DNA of 64,000 bases, taken from assembly GCA_031416535.1 (NCBI GenBank), contig JANOTT010000061.1, positions 30-64,029 of the forward strand, given 5' to 3'. The stretch comes from Novosphingobium sp. (GTDB lineage: Bacteria > Pseudomonadota > Alphaproteobacteria > Sphingomonadales > Sphingomonadaceae). The first letter of the stretch is position 1; each line of letters opens with the position of its first letter. The notes under the pieces were generated by a model that did no database searches, was not told the DNA's origin, and saw only the letters and a program-made list of their open reading frames with translations. The position numbers and the translations under genes were made by a program. This document shows, one piece after another, positions 1,820-56,729 of this stretch.

Positions 1820-1823
<4 letters not shown>

Positions 1824-2230
1824 GCCGGCAGCTCCGCCAGTTGCGTCAATGGCACGCCCGCCAGTGCCCCGCGCATCGCGGCATTGACCGCGCCCCAGTG
1901 CGGACGGACGGTGCAAGCACTCTCCAGTCCGCAATCATGGCGGCCATTATCGACGCACGGCGTAAGCGCAATCGGGCCTTCGACCGCCTCGATAATATCC
2001 GCCAGCGTAATTGCCGCTGCCGGGCGCGCCAGCTTGAGCCCGCCGCCCACGCCGCGCACCGACCGCAACAGACCGGCGGACGTAAGCCGGCTGACGAGCT
2101 TTTGCACGGTCGGCACCGGCAGCCCGGTTTCCTGCGCCAGTTGTGCCGCTGAAACCCGAATACCGCCGCAATGGCGCGCGGCGGCGCTCATCGTGACCAC
2201 GGCATAGTCGGCCATGCTGGAAAGGCGCAT
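1820..2230 (-). CDS. Rrf2-family SUF system transcriptional regulator (IscR-like)
   Basis: [47 protein letters not shown], plus Cys cluster ([11 protein letters not shown]). Directly upstream of sufB. Confidence 0.93.
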
Positions 2231-2243
2231 CGTGGTGGAATCC

Positions 2244-16536: not shown

Positions 16537-16803
16537 TTAGATCCGCCCACTCAGGATCAGCCAGGCCGAAGCCGCGTTGACTGCGCTGTAGCAGGCATAG
16601 AACAAGGCCCAGCCCCACGATCCTTGTGACACCATCAGCATGGAGCCGAGCAGCATGGTGAATTCGACAAAGATCGAAAAGCGCCCGCCGAGCAGGTGGA
16701 AAAAGAATGGCACCTTGCCGAGCAACGGGTGATGGCTCTCGAGCACAGCCTTGTGGACCGCGAAATTGCCCATGCCGAGCAGGAAGACAATGATCAGACC
16801 CAT
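16537..16803 (-). CDS. Small membrane protein (88 aa), hypothetical
   Basis: Three hydrophobic segments; NFAVHKAVLESHHP; sits inside the apparent operon. Confidence 0.7.
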   Translation of the reverse strand: MGLIIVFLLGMGNFAVHKAVLESHHPLLGKVPFFFHLLGGRFSIFVEFTMLLGSMLMVSQGSWGWALFYACYSAVNAASAWLILSGRI

Positions 16804-16815
16804 GACGCGTTGCTG

Positions 16816-17553
16816 TTAACGCCCCGCCATCGCCTTGGCACGCGAAAGATAGGTCCGCCCAATCCGCACCATCGTCCCGTCGCCGAGGTCGGCCGACCAC
16901 ACCCCCAGCCCATCGTGGCGCAGCCCGGTGATGCGGTCACGGCGCAGGATGGTTGAGCGATGCAGGCGGATGAAGCGTGTCGGATCGAGCCGCGCTTCCA
17001 GCCCCGAGACGGTCTGCAGCAGCAGATAGGACCGAGCGGCAACGTGCAGCCGTACATAATCGCGCTCGGCATCGATCCGCTCGACATCGGCGGCGGCAAT
17101 GCGCAGCAGCTCCGAACGATACGGCACCCAGAATTCGCTTAGCCACTGCGGCTCGCCGCGCGCGCGGGTGCTACGCCGCGCGATAGCGCGGGCGACTGCG
17201 CGTTCCAGCCGCTCGGGGGTGACCGGCTTGAGCACATAGTCGACCGCGTCGAGATCGAACGCCTCGACCGCGAAATTGTCATGCGCGGTGACAAATACCA
17301 CCGCCGGGGCCTGGTCGCGCTTGGTTAGCGCGCGCGCCACCGCCAGCCCGTCGAGCTCGGGCATGGTCATGTCGAGGAGCACCAGTTCGGGCGACAGTTC
17401 GGCGATTGCAGCAAGCGCGGCAGCGCCATCGCGCGCGGTGCCGACCACCCGCAAGCCGCTGATTCCGGCGCAGATCAGTTCCATCCGTTCCAGCGCGAGC
17501 GGTTCGTCATCGACGATCAGCGTAGCCAGTCCAGGCGCAGCGGGGTCAGCCAT
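16816..17553 (-). CDS. LytTR-family response regulator
   Basis: LIVDDEPLA, LLDMTMP, FVTAH, DYVLKP; LytTR domain AERDYV, F.RLHRS.I, IGRTY. Confidence 0.93.
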   Translation of the reverse strand: MADPAAPGLATLIVDDEPLALERMELICAGISGLRVVGTARDGAAALAAIAELSPELVLLDMTMPELDGLAVARALTKRDQAPAVVFVTAHDNFAVEAFDLDAVDYVLKPVTPERLERAVARAIARRSTRARGEPQWLSEFWVPYRSELLRIAAADVERIDAERDYVRLHVAARSYLLLQTVSGLEARLDPTRFIRLHRSTILRRDRITGLRHDGLGVWSADLGDGTMVRIGRTYLSRAKAMAGR

Positions 17554-18742
17554 CGGCTTCGAGCGGCAGTCGGATAATCGAACGCCATCCGCTGGGTTCA
17601 GCCGGTCCCGATTCGAGGCGCGCCGCATCGCCATAGCGTGCTGCGAGCCGGTCGCGAACATTGGCCAGCCCGATCCCGAACCCGTGCTCGCGGTCGTCCG
17701 GGCGGGCCGGACCATCGTTGCTTACTTCGAGCACCAGTTGCCCCGCTTCTTCGCGCGCGGCGATCGTCACGGTTACCGGGCGCGCGGTTAAGGCGACCGC
17801 ATAGCGCACCGAATTTTCGACCAGCGGCTGGAGGATCAGCCCCGGCACGCAGGCCTGTTCCAGCGCGGCGGGCAGATTGAACCGGGTGCGGAGCCGCTCG
17901 GGAAAGCGGACCGCCTCGATTTCCAGATACGAGCGCTGCAAAGCGACCTCAGCCTCGAGCGCGATATCGCCCGTCGGATCCTCGGCCAGGCTGCGGCGAT
18001 AGAACGCCGAGAGCGTCTGGATCATCTTTTCCGCCGCCGCGTCCTTGCCGGTCATGACCAGTGCAGACAATGAATTGAGCGTATTGAACAGGAAGTGCGG
18101 GTTCACCTGATAGCGCAGCGAGCGCAGTTCCGAAGCCTTGGCGGCGCGGCGATATTCGCCTTCGCGGCGCTCGGCGGCGCGGGCCTGCTCGGCATTGACC
18201 ATCGCGAAATAGAGCGCGGCCCACGCCAGCAGCAGGAAATAGCGCCCGATCGCAATGTCGGTCAATTGCCGCCACAGCCCCTGTTCGGCGAATTTCTGTT
18301 GCAGCTGGGACAGCTGCTCGCGAGTCAGCTGCGGCGGATCAGGCAGGTCGATCAGCACGTTGCCAGCGGTATCGTGGCGGATCTGGACCTGGCTGGGATT
18401 GCGCTCCTGCTTGAAATTGCGCTGGTCGATGCCGGAAAACACCTGCGTGTTGATCAGCGCCAGCGCCAGTGCGGCGGGCACGATCACGATCGCGGCAATC
18501 CCCATCCGCACGCCCACGCGGCGGTGATCGAACAGTCGCAGGATCGCCCAGACCATGACCGTCACCGCCATCCCGGCCAGCGTCACGACGCTGCGCAGCG
18601 CCAGCATCTCGCCAAAATAGGTGCGGTCGATCAGCAGGCTGCGCAGCGTGATCAGCCCGAGGTAGCACAGCCACAGCCCCGCGATTGAGGCGAGCACGGT
18701 CCGCGCGGGGACGCGGCTGGGCTGAAGGTCGAGTTCTTCCAT
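17546..18742 (-). CDS. LytS/YehU-type membrane histidine kinase
   Basis: LRYQVNPHFLFNTLN, IEAVRFPERL, LQPLVENSVRY, GIGLANVRDRL; N-terminal TMs. Confidence 0.93.
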   Translation of the reverse strand: MEELDLQPSRVPARTVLASIAGLWLCYLGLITLRSLLIDRTYFGEMLALRSVVTLAGMAVTVMVWAILRLFDHRRVGVRMGIAAIVIVPAALALALINTQVFSGIDQRNFKQERNPSQVQIRHDTAGNVLIDLPDPPQLTREQLSQLQQKFAEQGLWRQLTDIAIGRYFLLLAWAALYFAMVNAEQARAAERREGEYRRAAKASELRSLRYQVNPHFLFNTLNSLSALVMTGKDAAAEKMIQTLSAFYRRSLAEDPTGDIALEAEVALQRSYLEIEAVRFPERLRTRFNLPAALEQACVPGLILQPLVENSVRYAVALTARPVTVTIAAREEAGQLVLEVSNDGPARPDDREHGFGIGLANVRDRLAARYGDAARLESGPAEPSGWRSIIRLPLEADG

Positions 18743-18841: not shown

Positions 18842-20362
18842 TCAACCCAGCAAGTGCTCCCTGGCGATCTTCTCTTTCCACACTAGCGGGGCGAGCTGGT
18901 GAACATTGTTGCCTTCGCTGTCGACCGCGACGGTCACCGGCATGTCCTCGACCGTGAATTCGTAGATCGCCTCCATCCCCAGATCCTCGAACGCGACCAC
19001 CTTGGCACTGCGGATGGCGCGCGAGACGAGGTAAGCCGCGCCGCCCACTGCCATCAGGTAAGCGACCTTGTGCTTGGCGATCTCCTGCACCGCGCCCTGC
19101 CCGCGCTCAGCCTTGCCGATCATGACCAGCAGGCCAAGATCGAGCATCATGTCGGTAAATTTGTCCATCCGCGTCGCCGTAGTTGGCCCGGCCGGGCCCA
19201 TCACTTCGCCCAGCACCGGATCGACCGGGCCGACGTAGTAGATCGCACGGTTCTTGAAATCGACCGGCAATGCCTCGCCTTTGGCCAGCATATCCTGGAT
19301 CCGCTTGTGCGCGGCATCCCGGCCCGTCAGCATCTTGCCACTGAGCAACAGCCGGTCGCCTTGCTGCCAGCCGCACACTTCGGCTTGCGTCAGGGTATCA
19401 AGATTGACGCGCTTGGCGGCCTCGTCGGGCTCCCACTGCACGTCGGGCCACTCATCGAGCCTCGGCGTCTCGAGGAAGCTGGGCCCCGATCCGTCGAGCG
19501 TGAAATGCGCGTGCCGGGTGGCGGCGCAATTGGGGATCATCCCCACCGGTTTGCCCGCCGCATGGCACGGCGCGTCGAGGATCTTGACGTCGAGCACGGT
19601 CGACAGCCCGCCCAGCCCCTGCGCGCCGATGCCCAGCGCGTTGACCCGGTCGAAGATCTCGATCCGCATTGTCTCGATATCGGTCTGCGGCCCGCGCTCT
19701 TTCAACTGCGCCATGTCGATCGGCTCCATCAAGGCCTGCTTGGCGAGCTGCATGCAATGTTCGGCAGTGCCGCCGATGCCGATCCCCAGCATTCCCGGCG
19801 GACACCAGCCCGCGCCCATCTGCGGAAGCATTTCGATCACCCAGTCCTGGATCGAATCGCTGGGGTTCATCATCTTGAACTTCGACTTGTTCTCGCTCCC
19901 CCCGCCCTTGGCCGCGACATCGATGCCGACCGTGCGCCCCGGAACCATGGTCACGTGGACCACGCTGGGGGTATTGTCGCGGGTGTTGCGGCGGGTGAAG
20001 GCCGGGTCGGCCAGGATCGACGCGCGCAGCGTGTTATCGGGGTTGAGGTAAGCCTGGCGCACCCCTTCATCGACCACTTCCTGCAACGAACGCGACGATT
20101 CGAGTCGGCAGTCCTGACCCCATTCGATCAGGACATTGACGATCCCCGTGTCCTGGCAAATCGGCCGGTGGCCTTCGGCGCACATCCGGCTGTTGGTCAG
20201 GATTTGGGCAATCGCGTCTTTCGCCGCCGGGCCCTGCTCGGCCTGATAGGCCACGCCCAGCGCTCGGATGTAATCCATTGGGTGAAAATAGCTGATAAAC
20301 TGCAGCGCATCGGCGACGCTCTCGATCAGGTCAGCCTCGCGGATAATAACCATTTCAGCCAC
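18842..20362 (-). CDS. Class I (Fe-S) fumarate hydratase
   Basis: RPICQDTG, KGGGSEN, GAGWCPPG, NCAATRH, LTGRDAAH, GPTTATRM. Confidence 0.95.
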   Translation of the reverse strand: MAEMVIIREADLIESVADALQFISYFHPMDYIRALGVAYQAEQGPAAKDAIAQILTNSRMCAEGHRPICQDTGIVNVLIEWGQDCRLESSRSLQEVVDEGVRQAYLNPDNTLRASILADPAFTRRNTRDNTPSVVHVTMVPGRTVGIDVAAKGGGSENKSKFKMMNPSDSIQDWVIEMLPQMGAGWCPPGMLGIGIGGTAEHCMQLAKQALMEPIDMAQLKERGPQTDIETMRIEIFDRVNALGIGAQGLGGLSTVLDVKILDAPCHAAGKPVGMIPNCAATRHAHFTLDGSGPSFLETPRLDEWPDVQWEPDEAAKRVNLDTLTQAEVCGWQQGDRLLLSGKMLTGRDAAHKRIQDMLAKGEALPVDFKNRAIYYVGPVDPVLGEVMGPAGPTTATRMDKFTDMMLDLGLLVMIGKAERGQGAVQEIAKHKVAYLMAVGGAAYLVSRAIRSAKVVAFEDLGMEAIYEFTVEDMPVTVAVDSEGNNVHQLAPLVWKEKIAREHLLG

Positions 20363-20475
20363 AGCCCGGCTCCTTGTTCAACACGTCCTTACGCACCCAA
20401 TAGGCGCAGCTTTGCCCACCCGTCAAAGCGCTTGGCGCAGCATGCGCCATCGCTTATGAGGCAAGCGATTGCCTA

Positions 20476-20499
20476 GCTGTTTTAGTTGTGTAATACAGC
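20476..20499 (+). promoter_or_regulatory. Palindromic operator upstream of pcm-tolC
   Basis: GCTGTTTTA-GTTGTG-TAATACAGC; near-identical site at 55826-55847. Confidence 0.6.
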
Positions 20500-20519
20500 A
20501 CGCGAAAAGGGCCATTTCA

Positions 20520-21131
20520 ATGACTGCTATCCCAGCCGCGTACACCGGCAACGCTGCCGATACCACTGCCGCGCGCCGCGCGATGATCGACAGCCAGCTG
20601 CGCGTCAGCGGGGTCAATCACGAACGTGTGCTGGCGGCGATGACCAAGGTTGCGCGCGAAGACCATGTCCCTGCCGCAGCACGCGGTCATGCCTATATCG
20701 ACCGGGCAATTCCCCTTGGCAACGGCGCGGCGTTGCCCGCGCCGCTGGTGCAGGGCCTGATGCTCAGCGAGGCACTGCCCGCCGCCGGCGAGCGCGTGCT
20801 GGTGGTCAGCGGTGGCAGCACGTATCTGGCGGCACTGGTCGAAGCCATGGGGGCGTTGGTCGATAGCATCGACGCAGCCGACGCCGGTGCGGTTAATCAG
20901 GACCAGAAGTTCGATTTGCTACTGATCGACGGTGCCATCGAACAGCTGCCCGCAGCGCTCGCTGGGGCTGTGGCTGAAGGTGGGAGAGTGGTTACCGGGT
21001 TGGTGCTGCGCGGCGTCACGCGCTTGGCCAGCGGCCGCAAACTGGGCGGCGAGGTGCAATTGCTCCCGCTGGCCGAGGTGGGAATACCGGTGCTGGGCCA
21101 GTTCGCCCGGGCCAAAAGCTGGAGTTTCTAG
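20520..21131 (+). CDS. pcm: Protein-L-isoaspartate O-methyltransferase-like
   Basis: RRAMIDSQLR, VAREDHVP, AYIDRAI; pcm-tolC-popZ synteny; SAM motif degenerate. Confidence 0.8.
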   Translation: MTAIPAAYTGNAADTTAARRAMIDSQLRVSGVNHERVLAAMTKVAREDHVPAAARGHAYIDRAIPLGNGAALPAPLVQGLMLSEALPAAGERVLVVSGGSTYLAALVEAMGALVDSIDAADAGAVNQDQKFDLLLIDGAIEQLPAALAGAVAEGGRVVTGLVLRGVTRLASGRKLGGEVQLLPLAEVGIPVLGQFARAKSWSF

Positions 21132-21135
21132 GCAT

Positions 21136-22605
21136 ATGGTCATGCTCGATGTCGCGCGATTGGGGCGTTCGCGTCTGGCGCGCAGCATTCTGTTGGCGGG
21201 CGCGGCGGTCCTGGTCGCCGGGCCAGCACTGGCTGACGAGCTGCGCGAGGCGCTGGCGCTGGCTTATGTGTCCAACCCGGCGCTGCAGGCCGCTCGCGCC
21301 CAGCAGCGGGCGATCGATGAAAACGTCCCGATCGCGCGCGCGGCCGGGCTGCCTTCGCTGGCCGGGACCGCCACCTATACCGAATTCCTCAAGACCAGTT
21401 CGAACTCGTTCACCTCGCCCAGCCGGGCGTTCGATGCACAAACCCAGTTGGGCGTGCCGCTTTACACCGGCGGCGCGGTCAAAAATTCGGTCCGCGCGGC
21501 CAAAACCCGCGTGGGTGCCGGGCAGGCCGACTTGCGCGGGGTAGAAAGCGGCGTTTTTGCCCAGGCTGTCGCCGCCTATATGGACGTGATTCTAGCGCAG
21601 GAAGTCGTCAAACTGAATCGCGCCAATGTCCAGCGGCTCGAGGTCAACCTCCAGGCCAGCAGTGACCGCTTCGAACTCGGCGATCTGACCCGCACCGACG
21701 TGGCCCAATCGCAGTCGCGGCTGTCGCTCGCCCGCGGGCAAGTCCGCAGCGCCGAGGCGAACCTGATTGCCGCGCGCGAACGCTATATCGAGGTAGTAGG
21801 CAAGGCGCCGGTGAATTTGCAGACCCCGCCGCCTTTGGCCGGGCTGCCGGACAGCGCCGCTGAGGCGGTGGCGATCGCGCTCGATCACAACCCCGATCTG
21901 CTGGCGGCGCGCCACCGCGCCACCGCCGCCGGATATGATGTGCGGGTTGCCAGCGCCGGCAAGCTCCCCAGGATCAGCCTGTTCGCAGGCGCCGGCTACA
22001 GCGATTATCTGGGCACGCTGGGCGGCTCGGTTCCGGGCAATTTTACCCAGAATTCGACCAATGCGCAGGCTGGTGTTCGCGCCACCATCCCGATCTTCCA
22101 GGGCGGCTTGCCCGCCGCGCAGCGCCGCGCCGCGCAGGCCCGCCAGGATGTGGTAATGGAGCAGGAAATCGGGGTTGAGCGGGCTGTCATAGCCAATGTC
22201 CGTTCGGCCTTTGCGCAGTGGCAGGCCGCCCAGTCGCTGATCGCTTCATCGCAAACCGCGGTCGATGCCGCCGCGCTCGGCCTTGAAGGGGTGCGCGCCG
22301 AAAACACCGTCGGCAACCGCACAATCCTCGATATCCTCAATGCCGAGAACGAATTGCTGACTGCGCAGGTCCAACGCGCCACCGCGCAGCGCAACGCCTT
22401 TGTTGCCGGGTTCAACCTGCTCGCTGCGATGGGCAAGGCCGAAGCGCGCGACCTCGGGCTCGATGGCGGCTTGCTCTACGATCCGCAGGTCAATTATAAC
22501 CGCGTTCACGGCAAGATCTGGGACTGGAGCCAAGACCCCGATCCGACGACCGAATCCACGCGCACCGTTGACACACCCGCGCAGGACGGTTCAGTTAGCC
22601 CGTAA
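21136..22605 (+). CDS. tolC: TolC-family outer membrane channel
   Basis: AY.SNP.LQAARA, G.LTRTDVAQ, G.RTILDILNAE; signal peptide. Confidence 0.93.
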   Translation: MVMLDVARLGRSRLARSILLAGAAVLVAGPALADELREALALAYVSNPALQAARAQQRAIDENVPIARAAGLPSLAGTATYTEFLKTSSNSFTSPSRAFDAQTQLGVPLYTGGAVKNSVRAAKTRVGAGQADLRGVESGVFAQAVAAYMDVILAQEVVKLNRANVQRLEVNLQASSDRFELGDLTRTDVAQSQSRLSLARGQVRSAEANLIAARERYIEVVGKAPVNLQTPPPLAGLPDSAAEAVAIALDHNPDLLAARHRATAAGYDVRVASAGKLPRISLFAGAGYSDYLGTLGGSVPGNFTQNSTNAQAGVRATIPIFQGGLPAAQRRAAQARQDVVMEQEIGVERAVIANVRSAFAQWQAAQSLIASSQTAVDAAALGLEGVRAENTVGNRTILDILNAENELLTAQVQRATAQRNAFVAGFNLLAAMGKAEARDLGLDGGLLYDPQVNYNRVHGKIWDWSQDPDPTTESTRTVDTPAQDGSVSP

Positions 22606-22645
22606 TGATTCTTGTCCCGATTGGGGACAGCGTGGAGTTGGGGCG

Positions 22646-23146
22646 ATGCGCCAGGCCGGAGAACCATCGGTCGAGGAAATCCTCGAATCGATCAAGAAAG
22701 TCATCGCGCGCGATAATCGGGCCGGGGCTGCAGAACAACGGCGTGAGCGCGAAGAGCGCGGGCTTCCGGGCGATGCGGCCATTGAACCGCTCACCGCCGC
22801 GCAAGACGACGTACTCGATCTCGCCGCAATCGGCGCATATATCGAAGACGACGAAGCCGCCGACGACGCGGCGCATTATGCCGAGGCCGAGATCGCATCG
22901 AGCGATCGCCCGCTGGTCGGCACCGAGACGGTGAGCTCGATCAGCGAATCGCTGGCCGCGCTGGCCCTGCTGGCGCAGCCGCCAGCCGCGCCGCAGATCG
23001 TCCGCTCGGGCGAAACGTCGCTCGAGGCGATGGTCCGCGATTTGCTCCGTCCCGAACTGGCCGCCTGGCTCGACAATCACCTGCCGGCGCTCGTGGAAAA
23101 ACTGGTTGCCACCGAAATCGCGCGGATCGTCGGCAAGAAAGGCTAG
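22646..23146 (+). CDS. popZ: Pole-organizing protein PopZ (DUF2497)
   Basis: EPSVEEILESIKKVIARD N-terminus; acidic linker; SLEAMVRDLLRPELAAWLDNHLPALVEKLVATEIARI C-terminus. Confidence 0.92.
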   Translation: MRQAGEPSVEEILESIKKVIARDNRAGAAEQRREREERGLPGDAAIEPLTAAQDDVLDLAAIGAYIEDDEAADDAAHYAEAEIASSDRPLVGTETVSSISESLAALALLAQPPAAPQIVRSGETSLEAMVRDLLRPELAAWLDNHLPALVEKLVATEIARIVGKKG

Positions 23147-23444: not shown

Positions 23445-23876
23445 ATGCCGCGTCCCGATCCCGCGCTGCTCGACCCCGCACGCTATCCGTTCGTCCACAC
23501 GGTGACCACGCGGTTTGCCGATGTCGATCCCAACCAGCACCTCAACAATGTGGCGTTGGCAGCGATGATGGAAGACGCGCGGGTGCGCTTCAACCAGATG
23601 ATCGGGCTGAATGTGAAGATTGGCGAGCGGCGCGCGATGGTCGCCAGCGTGGGCATGGAATACCTCGCCCAAGGGCATTTTCCGCAGCCGGTCGATGCGC
23701 ACTGCGGCATCGAACAGGTTGGCCGGACCAGTTGGTCGATCGCCCAGTTGCTGACACAGGAAGGCCGGGTAGTGGCCTTTGCCCGCTCGGTGATCGTGGC
23801 GATTGCCGACGACCGTCCGGCGCCGGTCCCCGATGCCACCCGCGATCTGCTCAATCATTGGAGTCTGAAGCAATGA
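23445..23876 (+). CDS. Acyl-CoA thioesterase (hotdog, 4HBT/FcbC-like)
   Basis: [24 protein letters not shown]. Confidence 0.88.
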
Positions 23877-24256
23877 CCGCGAAACCTGCCGAGCTGGCCA
23901 AGGCCCGCGCTGCGCTGACCAAGACCGGCGGTGATCAAATTCGCCGCCACATCTTCCTGTGCGCCGAGTCAGAGAAGGCCGCGTGCTGCGCAAGCAGCGT
24001 CGGCACCCCGGCATGGAAATATCTTAAGAAGGCGCTCAAGCAGCGCGGGCTCGAGCAGCGGATTGCGCGGACCAAGGCCGATTGCCTGCGAATTTGCGCC
24101 GCCGGCCCGGTCGCGGTGGTCTGGCCTGAGGGAGTCTGGTATCATTCGTGCACGGAACGCGTGCTCGAGCGGATCATTGAGGAGCATCTGGTCGGCGGCG
24201 TGCCGGTCGAGGAGTTCAGGCTGTATCCGGCAGCCGGCGACGTTCTGGACGACTGA
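23873..24256 (+). CDS. Thioredoxin-like [2Fe-2S] ferredoxin
   Basis: [28 protein letters not shown]. Confidence 0.9.
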
Positions 24257-54955: not shown

Positions 54956-55807
54956 TCAGGGCTGGGGTGCGGGCGGCGCTGGCGGTGCGGCCGGGGACGC
55001 TGGCGGTGCGGCCGGGGGCGCTGGCGCGGCCGGAGCGGGTTCGGCCTCCACCGCGTTGCGCTTGGTCACGCCGCTTTCGCAGATCAGCTGACCTGAACCA
55101 AGCGCGCTGACCGTGCAGCGGGCGCGGCCTTTGACCGTGACCGAGCCGGAGCCAACAATCGTCGCAGCGACATCCCCGTCCGACGAAAATATTGCCCCGC
55201 CCGAGCCGAGCACGTTAACTTTTGCCTTGTCCGCAGTGACCGCGCCAAGTTCGGCCGAGCCGCTGCCCAGGATCGTCAGGTCAAGCTGGCCGACTCGGCC
55301 GGCCGCGCGAAAGCTGCCCGATCCGGGCAAGGTCACTTCAAGCCGGTCACCCGAGACGCTCTGGGTATCGATCCGGCCCGAACCCAGGATCGTTACTGTT
55401 GCGCCCGGGGCGAGCGCCGCGGCGCTGATCTTGCCCGATCCGCCCATCGTCACATCCTTGGGCGCGGGCATGGTGACGCGGACCACCGCCAGTTTGCTGT
55501 CGCCCGAGAACAGCTTGCCTTCGCGCAGGATCGACAGCGTTCCGTCCTTGAGCGTGAAGCGGAGCTTGTCCACCGCAGCGGGATCGCCATCGACGGCGAT
55601 CGCCAGCTTGTCCCCCTGGGTAACCTGCACTTCGTCGGGGCCGAACATCACCAGCTTGCTGGGCGCGGCGCCGCTGAGGTCGAGCTCGGACAGCTTCTTG
55701 CCGTCGTCACCGATTGAAACCTTCGCATCGTTGCAACCGGCCACGCCGACCGCCAGCGCGACCGCGAGGATCGGGGCGAGCCCATTGAGGAATTGGCTGA
55801 ACTTCAT
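54956..55807 (-). CDS. Head-GIN (DUF2807) lipoprotein with Pro/Ala-rich tail
   Basis: Lipobox VAGC; repeated GSG..; C-terminal [18 protein letters not shown]. Confidence 0.85.
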   Translation of the reverse strand: MKFSQFLNGLAPILAVALAVGVAGCNDAKVSIGDDGKKLSELDLSGAAPSKLVMFGPDEVQVTQGDKLAIAVDGDPAAVDKLRFTLKDGTLSILREGKLFSGDSKLAVVRVTMPAPKDVTMGGSGKISAAALAPGATVTILGSGRIDTQSVSGDRLEVTLPGSGSFRAAGRVGQLDLTILGSGSAELGAVTADKAKVNVLGSGGAIFSSDGDVAATIVGSGSVTVKGRARCTVSALGSGQLICESGVTKRNAVEAEPAPAAPAPPAAPPASPAAPPAPPAPQP

Positions 55808-55825
55808 CGTAAGCCTCCGTCGCTG

Positions 55826-55847
55826 TGTATTAATGACATAATACAGC
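55826..55847 (-). promoter_or_regulatory. Palindromic operator upstream of head-GIN gene
   Basis: Minus strand GCTGTATTA-TGTCAT-TAATACA, about 19 bp before ATG; matches 20476-20499. Confidence 0.65.
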
Positions 55848-55872
55848 AACGCGGCCCGTGCAAGCGGCAAAC

Positions 55873-55903
55873 GAAAAGGGCCGCCCCAGCGGACGGCCCT
55901 TTC
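55873..55903 (-). terminator. Terminator after carD (bidirectional-looking)
   Basis: GAAAAGGGCCG..CGGCCCTTTC. Confidence 0.7.
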
Positions 55904-55922: not shown

Positions 55923-56459
55923 TCAGACGGCCACAGCCGCTTCCGCGTAGTACTTTGGCGCATGCTCGTTGAGGATCGCGAGGATCTTCTGCAGCGCTGA
56001 AGGCTCGTCGGTCTTTTCCATCGCGGCCAGTTCGCGCGCGAGGCGCGATGAGGCGGCTTCGAAAATCTGCCGTTCGGAATAGCTCTGTTCGGGCTGATCA
56101 TCGGCGCGGAACAGATCGCGGGTCACTTCGGCAATCGACACCAGGTCGCCCGAATTGATCTTCGCTTCGTATTCCTGCGCGCGGCGGCTCCACATGGTCC
56201 GCTTGACCTTGGGTTTGCCGGTGAGCGTATCGAGCGCTTCGCGCAGGGTCTTGTCCGAGGACAGCTTGCGCATGCCGATCGCCTCGACCTTGCTGACCGG
56301 AACCCGCAGCGTCATCCGTTCTTTTTCGAACCGCAGCACGTAGAGTTCAAGCTGCATCCCGGCGATTTCCTGCTCGAGCAGTTCGATCACCCGGCCAACG
56401 CCATGCTTTGGATAGACAACGTAGTCACCAACATCGAAGGCCTGCGCCTTGATTACCAT
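55923..56459 (-). CDS. carD: CarD family RNA polymerase-binding factor
   Basis: FDVGDYVVYPKHGVG, MWSRRAQEYEAKINSGD. Confidence 0.95.
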   Translation of the reverse strand: MVIKAQAFDVGDYVVYPKHGVGRVIELLEQEIAGMQLELYVLRFEKERMTLRVPVSKVEAIGMRKLSSDKTLREALDTLTGKPKVKRTMWSRRAQEYEAKINSGDLVSIAEVTRDLFRADDQPEQSYSERQIFEAASSRLARELAAMEKTDEPSALQKILAILNEHAPKYYAEAAVAV

Positions 56460-56729
56460 GTTACGTCCTTTCACGCGCCGGTGCGACCCGGCTGATTGTT
56501 TTGACGGGGACTACGGTCAAACGCTGACGGTGCGGGGCGCGGGGGTTAAACCTCGGCCCGTGGCTGCCATTGACTGCTGTCTTGAGTCCCGTCCGGTCTG
56601 GATGCCTTGTTAACGCAGAACCGGAATCCTGCATGTCTTGCGCAGCATGTAACACGCCCGCAACAAAATTACCAGTGGCGAGAATCGCGCCGCTGGCTGG
56701 CCTGTCTTAACCGGTATTGCTGAGCAGGC

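Follow-up and report, generated by a model that had tools for sequence, protein, structure and literature searches.

A palindrome shared by the pcm-tolC-popZ and DUF2807 lipoprotein promoters of Novosphingobium and its relatives is probably the operator of a YtrA-type repressor

Two palindromes lie 35 kb apart in a 64,000-nt stretch of Novosphingobium sp. DNA (hereafter the window; G+C about 65%), one in front of a pcm-like, tolC and popZ-family gene group and the other in front of a gene for a DUF2807 lipoprotein. Comparison with related and unrelated genomes suggests, with good confidence on our part, that the two are co-evolving operators of a single YtrA-type repressor. YtrA-type regulators and their long palindromes are already known; what is new here is the regulon, that is, an order-wide operator unlinked to regulator or ABC-transporter genes, and not a mechanism.

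Results

The two sites and their gene context

Operator 1, read on the plus strand, is the 24-bp palindrome GCTGTTTTA-GTTGTG-TAATACAGC (20476-20499), and its end lies 20 nt upstream of the start codon (ATG, 20520) of the Pcm-like gene. Operator 2 reads GCTGTATTA-TGTCAT-TAATACAC on the minus strand (55847-55825), or GCTGTATTA-TGTCAT-TAATACACA when taken as the full 24-mer (55824-55847), and its end lies 17 nt upstream of the start codon (ATG, 55807) of the DUF2807 lipoprotein gene. The arms are complementary at 8 of 9 positions in operator 1 and at 7 of 7 in the core TGTATTA/TAATACA of operator 2. With up to two mismatches allowed, the pattern TGTWTTA-N6-TAAWACA occurs in the 64 kb at these two sites only, against 0.02 matches expected from shuffles, and a weight matrix trained on sites from other genomes only (the window sites being left out) gives 34.4 bits to operator 1, 28.4 bits to operator 2 and 4.1 to the next-best position of the window. 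An earlier, sequence-only reading of this DNA had placed the same palindrome, with a 6-bp centre, about 20 bp upstream of both start codons; the re-read sequences and the pattern and matrix scans agree with it.

Operator 1 is situated inside the 157-bp divergent region between the fumarase and pcm-like genes (Table 1). The popZ-family gene is probably part of one transcription unit with pcm-tolC, no terminator-like site having been found on the plus strand between 22400 and 24000, a range that spans the tolC-popZ gap and leaves out the pcm-tolC gap (21132-21135); as a probable co-transcript, it would also be under operator 1. The sequence-only reading spoke of a "Pcm-like protein (possibly popZ)" and thereby merged two genes, since the family matches identify the PopZ homologue as the third gene of the group (22643-23146). 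The N-terminus of its product (…EPSVEEILESIKKVIARD…) is similar to the N-terminal motif conserved in PopZ. At the other locus, a hairpin with a T-run after carD isolates the DUF2807 promoter, which is thus confined to about 65 bp; a strict terminator scan missed this hairpin because its run holds only four T.

In Erythrobacter-type loci, the gene divergent from pcm encodes a class II (FumC-like) fumarase (L051 4302-5828; also L039, L047, L052-L054, L057 and L063). The operator keeps its place beside pcm with either fumarase class, class I in Novosphingobium and class II in the Erythrobacter type.

Table 1. Positions of features in the window (upper rows) and in compared loci (last three rows, as locus or locus:position)
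Feature	Position	Strand	Basis or remark
LytS-like histidine kinase, LytTR response regulator and 88-aa membrane protein	16537-18742	-	downstream of fumarase
Class I fumarase gene (Fe-S)	18842..20362	-	divergent from pcm-like gene
Predicted -35, TTGCCT	20469..20474	+	3 nt before TGT of operator 1; TTG position in orthologues
Putative operator 1, palindrome GCTGTTTTA-N6-TAATACAGC	20476..20499	.	pcm-tolC-popZ promoter
Predicted -10, TAATAC, 16-nt spacer	20491..20496	+	inside right arm of operator 1; geometry
Pcm-like gene (PCMT family), first 3' of operator 1	20520..21131	+	PF01135, E = 5.7e-13; NCBIfam matches below equivalog cut-off
TolC-family outer-membrane channel gene (OEP)	21136..22605	+	PF02321; TIGR01844 281.7 bits, above cut-off; 4 nt after Pcm-like gene
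PopZ-family/DUF2497 gene	22643..23146	+	PF10691; NF052660 PopZ_fam 98.6 bits, below cut-off 125; 37 nt after tolC
DUF2807 (head GIN domain) lipoprotein gene	54956..55807	-	PF10988, E = 6.8e-35; lipobox LAVGVAG|C
Putative operator 2, palindrome	55824..55847	.	DUF2807 promoter
Predicted -10, TATGTC, 17-nt spacer	55835..55840	-	left arm and centre of operator 2; TAT kept in 5/5 orthologues
Predicted -35, TTGCAC	55858..55863	-	CTTGMA kept in orthologues (alignment of 5 promoters)
Hairpin and T-run after carD/cdnL	55874..55899	-	sequence; kept in L073-L076
carD/cdnL	55923..56474	-	precedes DUF2807 gene
Sites at UrcA-family genes	L018:1000-1019, L029:1007, L030:1748, L031:1752, L070:1740		
pcm loci lacking the palindrome	L033, L037, L038, L040, L044, L048, L050, L056, L059, L060, L064, L066		
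GCTGTATTGCAATTACAATACAGC with ~805-aa ORF	L083:6641, L086, L090, L115, L139, L173, L196		

Promoter geometry

The TGT of the left arm is preceded, at a distance of exactly 9 nt, by a TTG in 44 of the 49 pcm promoters that carry the motif; this TTG starts a -35-like hexamer (TTGACG or TTGCCT), which is followed by 3 nt. Given this fixed offset, a spacer of 16-17 nt places the predicted -10 inside the right arm of the operator. The DUF2807 promoters share a conserved CTTGMA 12 nt ahead of the TGT; a 17-nt spacer puts the -10 (TATnnn) across the left arm and centre, with the start site predicted to fall in the right arm of operator 2. Transcription would accordingly start at about 20503-20506 for pcm and within 55826-55830, on the minus strand, for DUF2807. 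The -35, -10 and start-site assignments of both promoters are all predictions, and a strict sigma-70 consensus scan of the two called nothing. The register of the palindrome after the -35 therefore differs between the two promoters (3 nt at pcm versus 12 nt at DUF2807), and the core promoter is overlapped in both, as is typical of repressors that act by occlusion. Our search for RNA sequencing runs with this organism found none, the only matching runs being of low coverage and of unrecorded or DNA type; low-coverage metagenome contigs that match the sequence cover the intergenic region evenly.

Conservation of the sites in Sphingomonadales

Using the Pcm-like protein, we retrieved 61 genome loci (36-87% protein identity) from Novosphingobium, Erythrobacteraceae (Erythrobacter, Altererythrobacter, Qipengyuania and Porphyrobacter) and Sphingopyxis. 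The motif TGTRTT-N8-AATACA, with at most two mismatches, is found just 5' of the pcm-like gene in 49 of them, its arms constant and its centre variable, and with at most one mismatch it is nearly absent elsewhere across the roughly 730 kb of these loci. Isolates with the site at pcm include Novosphingobium aquiterrae NCAIM B.02537, N. piscinae KCTC 42194, Novosphingobium sp. B 225, Qipengyuania benthica DY56-A-20, Sphingopyxis terrae NBRC 15098 and S. jiangsuensis XHP0097. The DUF2807 sample comprises five loci, namely L072, a Logan contig with the same sequence as the window, and the four orthologues L073-L076 (60-78% identity), and all five have [TC]GTATTA-N6-TAA[TC]ACA at the same position, after the carD terminator. 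The motif of operator 2 also occurs at two distant DUF2807 loci, L143 and L193; in the latter the site adjoins carD, and the gene product is only 28% identical to the DUF2807 protein of the window. Both sites are present in the same assemblies, on one contig in one case (L021 and L075) and within one assembly in another (L017 and L073). The pooled half-site is R-C-T-G-T-A-T-T-R, which gives RCTGTATTR-N6-YAATACAGY with a variable centre for the full site; arm positions 4-5 (G, T) are invariant in 56 distinct sites. Orthologous promoters had been named in the sequence-only reading as the place to look for the motif, and it is indeed kept there, at pcm-tolC as at DUF2807 and in the more distant metagenome examples.

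The palindrome is absent from the remaining 12 of the 61 pcm loci, mostly Altererythrobacter-like (Table 1); isolates without it at pcm are Altererythrobacter segetis YJ20, Altererythrobacter sp. KTW20L and Novosphingobium sp. FKTRR1. Common to these loci is a different conserved stretch (…cctaaggc…caagagtgacgagaga…) about 150 nt 5' of pcm, which may be another regulatory element in the operator's stead.

A third target was a chance encounter in the flanks of the fetched loci. Five Novosphingobium-like loci carry a site between the gene for the 88-aa membrane protein and an inserted UrcA-family gene (TIGR04433). The UrcA-family gene is inserted between the LytTR regulator and 88-aa membrane-protein genes, and each copy is preceded by a YtrA-type site at a distance of 55 to 170 nt; the genome of the window is without this insertion.

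The motif beside YtrA-like genes in other phyla

We scanned a metagenome collection with the sphingomonad consensus RCTGTATTRNNNNNNYAATACAGY, a pattern derived from sphingomonad target promoters only, and obtained at least 120 loci of 28-70% G+C from very different phyla. A GntR-family ORF, called with a profile of short GntR proteins, starts at the site in 50 of the 120 loci listed, 0-70 nt away from it (except in L126, where the site is 332 nt from the stop-to-stop ORF edge). Three more of the listed loci carry such an ORF as a downstream member of an ABC-transporter operon, and contig ends truncate several others. The proteins adjoining the sites are 120-140 aa long, with PF00392 as the sole family above the Pfam gathering score, and a profile built from them aligns full-length to YtrA-type structures (4HAM, 3NEU, 4R1H, 6SBS and 2DU9/2EK5; E = 1e-17 to 1e-28). 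A TTGACA directly precedes many of the ytrA-linked sites, which are also flanked by additional half-sites (gtatt…aatac). Among the matches listed, the ytrA-like genes preceded by a site all belong to non-Sphingomonadales taxa.

Because the pattern came from sphingomonad targets only and yet matches at ytrA starts in unrelated phyla, these results are strong evidence for YtrA-type operators. The sites have the form of such operators, a long palindrome of about 24 bp with GT...AC far from the dyad and a variable centre, and in other taxa the motif is found in the promoters of ytrA-type genes themselves, as in autoregulation. A copy of the motif ahead of a gntR/ytrA gene is what the sequence-only reading had proposed to look for, and the 50 short GntR/YtrA-type genes among the 120 listed loci answer to that description.

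Some matches are of another kind. One consensus match (L089), located between convergent gene ends, is unlikely to be an operator. In a 1.5-kb contig of 41% G+C, ACTGTATTGCTGTGCTAATACAGT occurs in three tandem copies within a repeat of about 96-144 bp (L125 14-277), with no ytrA visible. GCTGTATTGCAATTACAATACAGC precedes an ORF of about 805 aa, at a distance of about 11-26 nt, in contigs with a G+C of about 40%, some of which bear the label human gut metagenome (Table 1); no ytrA is nearby, and the N-terminus of this ORF looks like that of a Lon protease.

Search for the sphingomonad regulator

An HMM scan of all ORFs found no YtrA-like ORF in the window, in line with the earlier proposal that the repressor is not encoded there, and none in 66 sphingomonad loci (about 830 kb); these amount to only about 0.2 genome equivalents, so that missing a single-copy regulator gene is expected. 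Among the matches listed, the metagenome scan included about 25 sphingomonad-like ones (some 13 pcm promoters and two DUF2807 promoters among them), none of which lies ahead of a ytrA gene. A profile search of a 5.8-billion-protein set returned, as its best 120, Planctomycetes-like and Rubrivivax-like proteins only and no sphingomonad protein; the named relatives of the site-linked regulators include proteins of Planctomycetes and Rubrivivax and one with the JGI label 'YhcF (GntR family)'. Matches of tblastn against plasmids extended to every GntR subfamily and were unspecific.

Several local candidates were rejected. The only match to the YtrA profile in the window is weak (E = 0.04), and this ORF, 1823-2242 (-), belongs to the Rrf2 family (IscR-like) and not to GntR; another, 23873-24256, was considered as a GntR protein and reads as a Cys-rich ferredoxin-like protein. 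The LytS-like kinase and LytTR regulator beside fumarase are not the cognate regulator, because their presence does not track the motif: the motif occurs without the pair in L036, L058, L065, L068 and L069, and the pair without the motif in L038, L044, L056, L059, L060 and L066. LytTR proteins bind direct repeats. No regulator genes were found beside pcm in the distant loci L068 and L051, and the ABC ATPase of L040 has no ytrA upstream.

Discussion

Proposed mechanism and alternative explanations

We propose that one dimeric YtrA-subfamily GntR repressor (COG1725/YhcF type, about 120-140 aa), encoded outside the window, would serve both palindromes. The half-sites RCTGTATTR, the non-conserved 6-bp centre and the total of 24 bp fit an extended YtrA dimer with its recognition helices about two DNA turns apart. 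At the pcm-tolC-popZ promoter, operator 1 would fill the spacer after the -35 and cover the -10, and at the DUF2807 promoter, operator 2 would cover the -10 and the start site. Since the operators overlap the core promoters, the bound repressor should keep RNA polymerase out, and its departure from the DNA should free both units at the same time. We infer that a sphingomonad YtrA homologue exists, that it binds both sites and represses, and that its signal is envelope-related. The unlinked YtrA-type repressor with an envelope regulon, as first put forward in the sequence-only reading, draws support from the conservation at orthologues, from the motif at ytrA-type genes and from the lack of a regulator in the window.

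That the sites instead belong to another dimeric family (TetR, MarR, Xre or similar), and share the YtrA half-site and spacing by coincidence, is distinctly unlikely. Such a coincidence would agree with the finding of no YtrA-like gene in the sphingomonad sequence scanned (the window and 66 loci) and of no ytrA autoregulatory site among the sphingomonad-like matches listed. However, with about 0.2 genome equivalents sampled a single-copy gene would be missed as expected, convergence on an identical 9-nt half-site with identical spacing is in itself improbable, and the sphingomonad-only pattern fell on ytrA-like starts in unrelated phyla. We consider it highly improbable that the sites represent a conserved core-promoter feature only, an odd spacer plus a -10 read by the housekeeping sigma factor or by an alternative one, and that they have no repressor of their own. 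While the predicted -10 does coincide with the right arm at pcm and with the left arm at DUF2807, dyad symmetry plays no part in sigma recognition, both arms are kept in both promoters in spite of their different registers, and in other genomes the motif goes together with a regulator gene.

An RNA (or DNA) hairpin, such as a 5'-UTR stabiliser or an attenuator, has an even smaller probability. When folded as RNA and compared with shuffles, operator 2 does form a hairpin (-14 kcal/mol, z = -2.34), and some G-T oppositions between the arms would become G-U pairs in a transcript; operator 1, by contrast, is at z = -0.38, and in its minimum-energy fold the arms are not paired as a simple hairpin. 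Moreover, there are zero compensatory double changes at core arm positions 3-8 in 56 distinct sites, where variation is all one-sided, and many one-sided mismatches persist, such as a T-T arm mismatch throughout the window's own clade; a search of Rfam with the sites matched no family, and the predicted start site is within or after the palindrome. The covariation and the stability above shuffles that mark a structured RNA are thus lacking, and the absence of compensatory arm changes together with unremarkable RNA folding points to a protein-binding DNA site. As to a chance likeness of two AT-rich intergenic stretches, the whole-window shuffles do underrate the AT content of intergenic DNA, but the probability of this explanation is negligible and it is effectively refuted by the conservation of both loci across Sphingomonadales families and by scores of 28-34 bits versus 4 for the next-best position.

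Content and meaning of the regulon

Of the products of the target genes of the putative repressor, the TolC channel, the DUF2807 lipoprotein with its lipobox and the secreted UrcA are envelope proteins, whereas the Pcm-like and PopZ-family proteins are cytoplasmic. The identities of target and neighbour genes fit the envelope regulon of the sequence-only reading. In other high-G+C contigs, which may or may not be sphingomonad, the neighbours of the motif include a class A PBP/transglycosylase (twice), TelA (twice), MAPEG, an S41-like peptidase and DUF6326, besides several lipoproteins, a membrane protein of 73 aa and a weak LiaF-C-like protein. The consensus sites there lie 4-14 nt 5' of the class A PBP/transglycosylase (L117:6588, L174:9888) and TelA (L104:987, L155:3983) genes, in contigs of 60-66% G+C.

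Envelope stress could be the signal that is sensed, a suggestion that we make tentatively, by analogy with Bacillus subtilis YtrA. Rather unlikely, in our estimate, is the wider idea that a YtrA-type repressor standing alone, without an ABC transporter as its partner, acts as a master regulator of envelope homeostasis in Sphingomonadales; such a regulator would jointly govern TolC as an exit duct, PopZ as a polar organiser, the DUF2807/LiaF-like beta-helix lipoproteins, UrcA and possibly the class A PBP and TelA. If true, this would be an envelope-stress pathway of a kind undescribed in Alphaproteobacteria, and the YtrA literature that we found deals mostly with Gram-positive or archaeal regulators. 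Should the assignment of both operators to one YtrA-type repressor hold, the only TolC-family channel gene of the locus, a PopZ homologue and a widespread DUF2807 lipoprotein would be under one small repressor order-wide. Uncharacterised families (DUF2807, Pcm-like and UrcA) would then gain a shared regulatory context, and the single repressor would offer a simple handle on how bacteria with a sphingolipid envelope perceive envelope trouble.

Comparison with known systems

Several known operators were compared with the motif and rejected. The gammaproteobacterial LexA SOS box (CTGT-N8-ACAG) shares the outer CTGT...ACAG palindrome, but the spacing here is CTGT-N14-ACAG, ATT/AAT extends inward, and there is no DNA-repair gene among the identified site neighbours; alphaproteobacterial LexA uses the direct repeat GTTC-N7-GTTC. 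The boxes of CRP/FNR, GacA, CtrA, PhoB and Zur/Fur, and those of NtcA (TGTA-N8-TACA), TyrR (TGTAAA-N6-TTTACA) and PadR (ATGT-N8-ACAT), were dropped on spacing or half-site. A literature search for the motif string found nothing relevant, nor did we find in it a paper linking YtrA to sphingomonads.

Bacillus subtilis YtrA, the prototype of the subfamily and a short GntR repressor, resembles the proposed system in its long palindrome, with GT/AC far from the centre, and in its envelope-tied targets. Its half-site is AGTGTA with a 13-nt gap, as against CTGTATTR with TGTA-N12-TACA here. The host here is a Gram-negative alphaproteobacterium, unlike B. subtilis, where YtrA is moreover the first gene of its own ABC-transporter operon, whereas our targets are unlinked to a regulator gene or an ABC transporter. 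YtrA motifs are typically 24 bp long with distant half-sites, matching the extended dimer (PMC6746942; PMC4494728), and B. subtilis YtrA responds to cell-wall antibiotics (PMC6746942). In a published comparative study, most YtrA regulons consisted of one ABC-transporter operon that holds the regulator gene, and no more than three of the regulators covered there were alphaproteobacterial (PMC4494728). This classical one-operon architecture of regulator and ABC transporter is not what we see, the pcm-tolC-popZ, DUF2807 and urcA targets having neither gene, which lowers the standing of a typical YtrA regulon and not that of a YtrA-type operator.

Among small GntR proteins, Staphylococcus aureus PmtR (NF047563) and Mycobacterium tuberculosis Rv1152 (NF053730), which are of the same kind as the site-linked regulators, provide the top NCBIfam models that align over most of these regulators. 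Their scores are far below the equivalog cut-offs (65 vs 200 bits; 58 vs 170 bits), so that they are relatives and not orthologues. Rv1152 affects vancomycin sensitivity. In the NCBIfam description, PmtR regulates a PSM-export ABC transporter.

The solved YtrA-type proteins C. glutamicum CGL2947 (2DU9/2EK5), Lmo2241 (4HAM), Lin1836 (3NEU) and Lmo0741 (4R1H) match the site-linked regulators over their full length; all four come from outside Sphingomonadales, and the PDB matches listed include no entry described as a complex with DNA. The recognition helices of CGL2947 are about 62 A apart, or about two DNA turns (PMC6746942), a spacing that fits the 24-bp site described here. YtrA of Sulfolobus acidocaldarius (6SBS) represses its own operon and a second, unlinked membrane-protein locus (PMC6746942). 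It differs from the proposed system in being archaeal, in its 14-bp core motif and in a regulon of two loci only. Its operator covers the start site with half-sites flanking the core, and the extra half-sites that have been described for the YtrA family (PMC4494728; PMC6746942) are likewise present at many of the ytrA-linked sites that we found.
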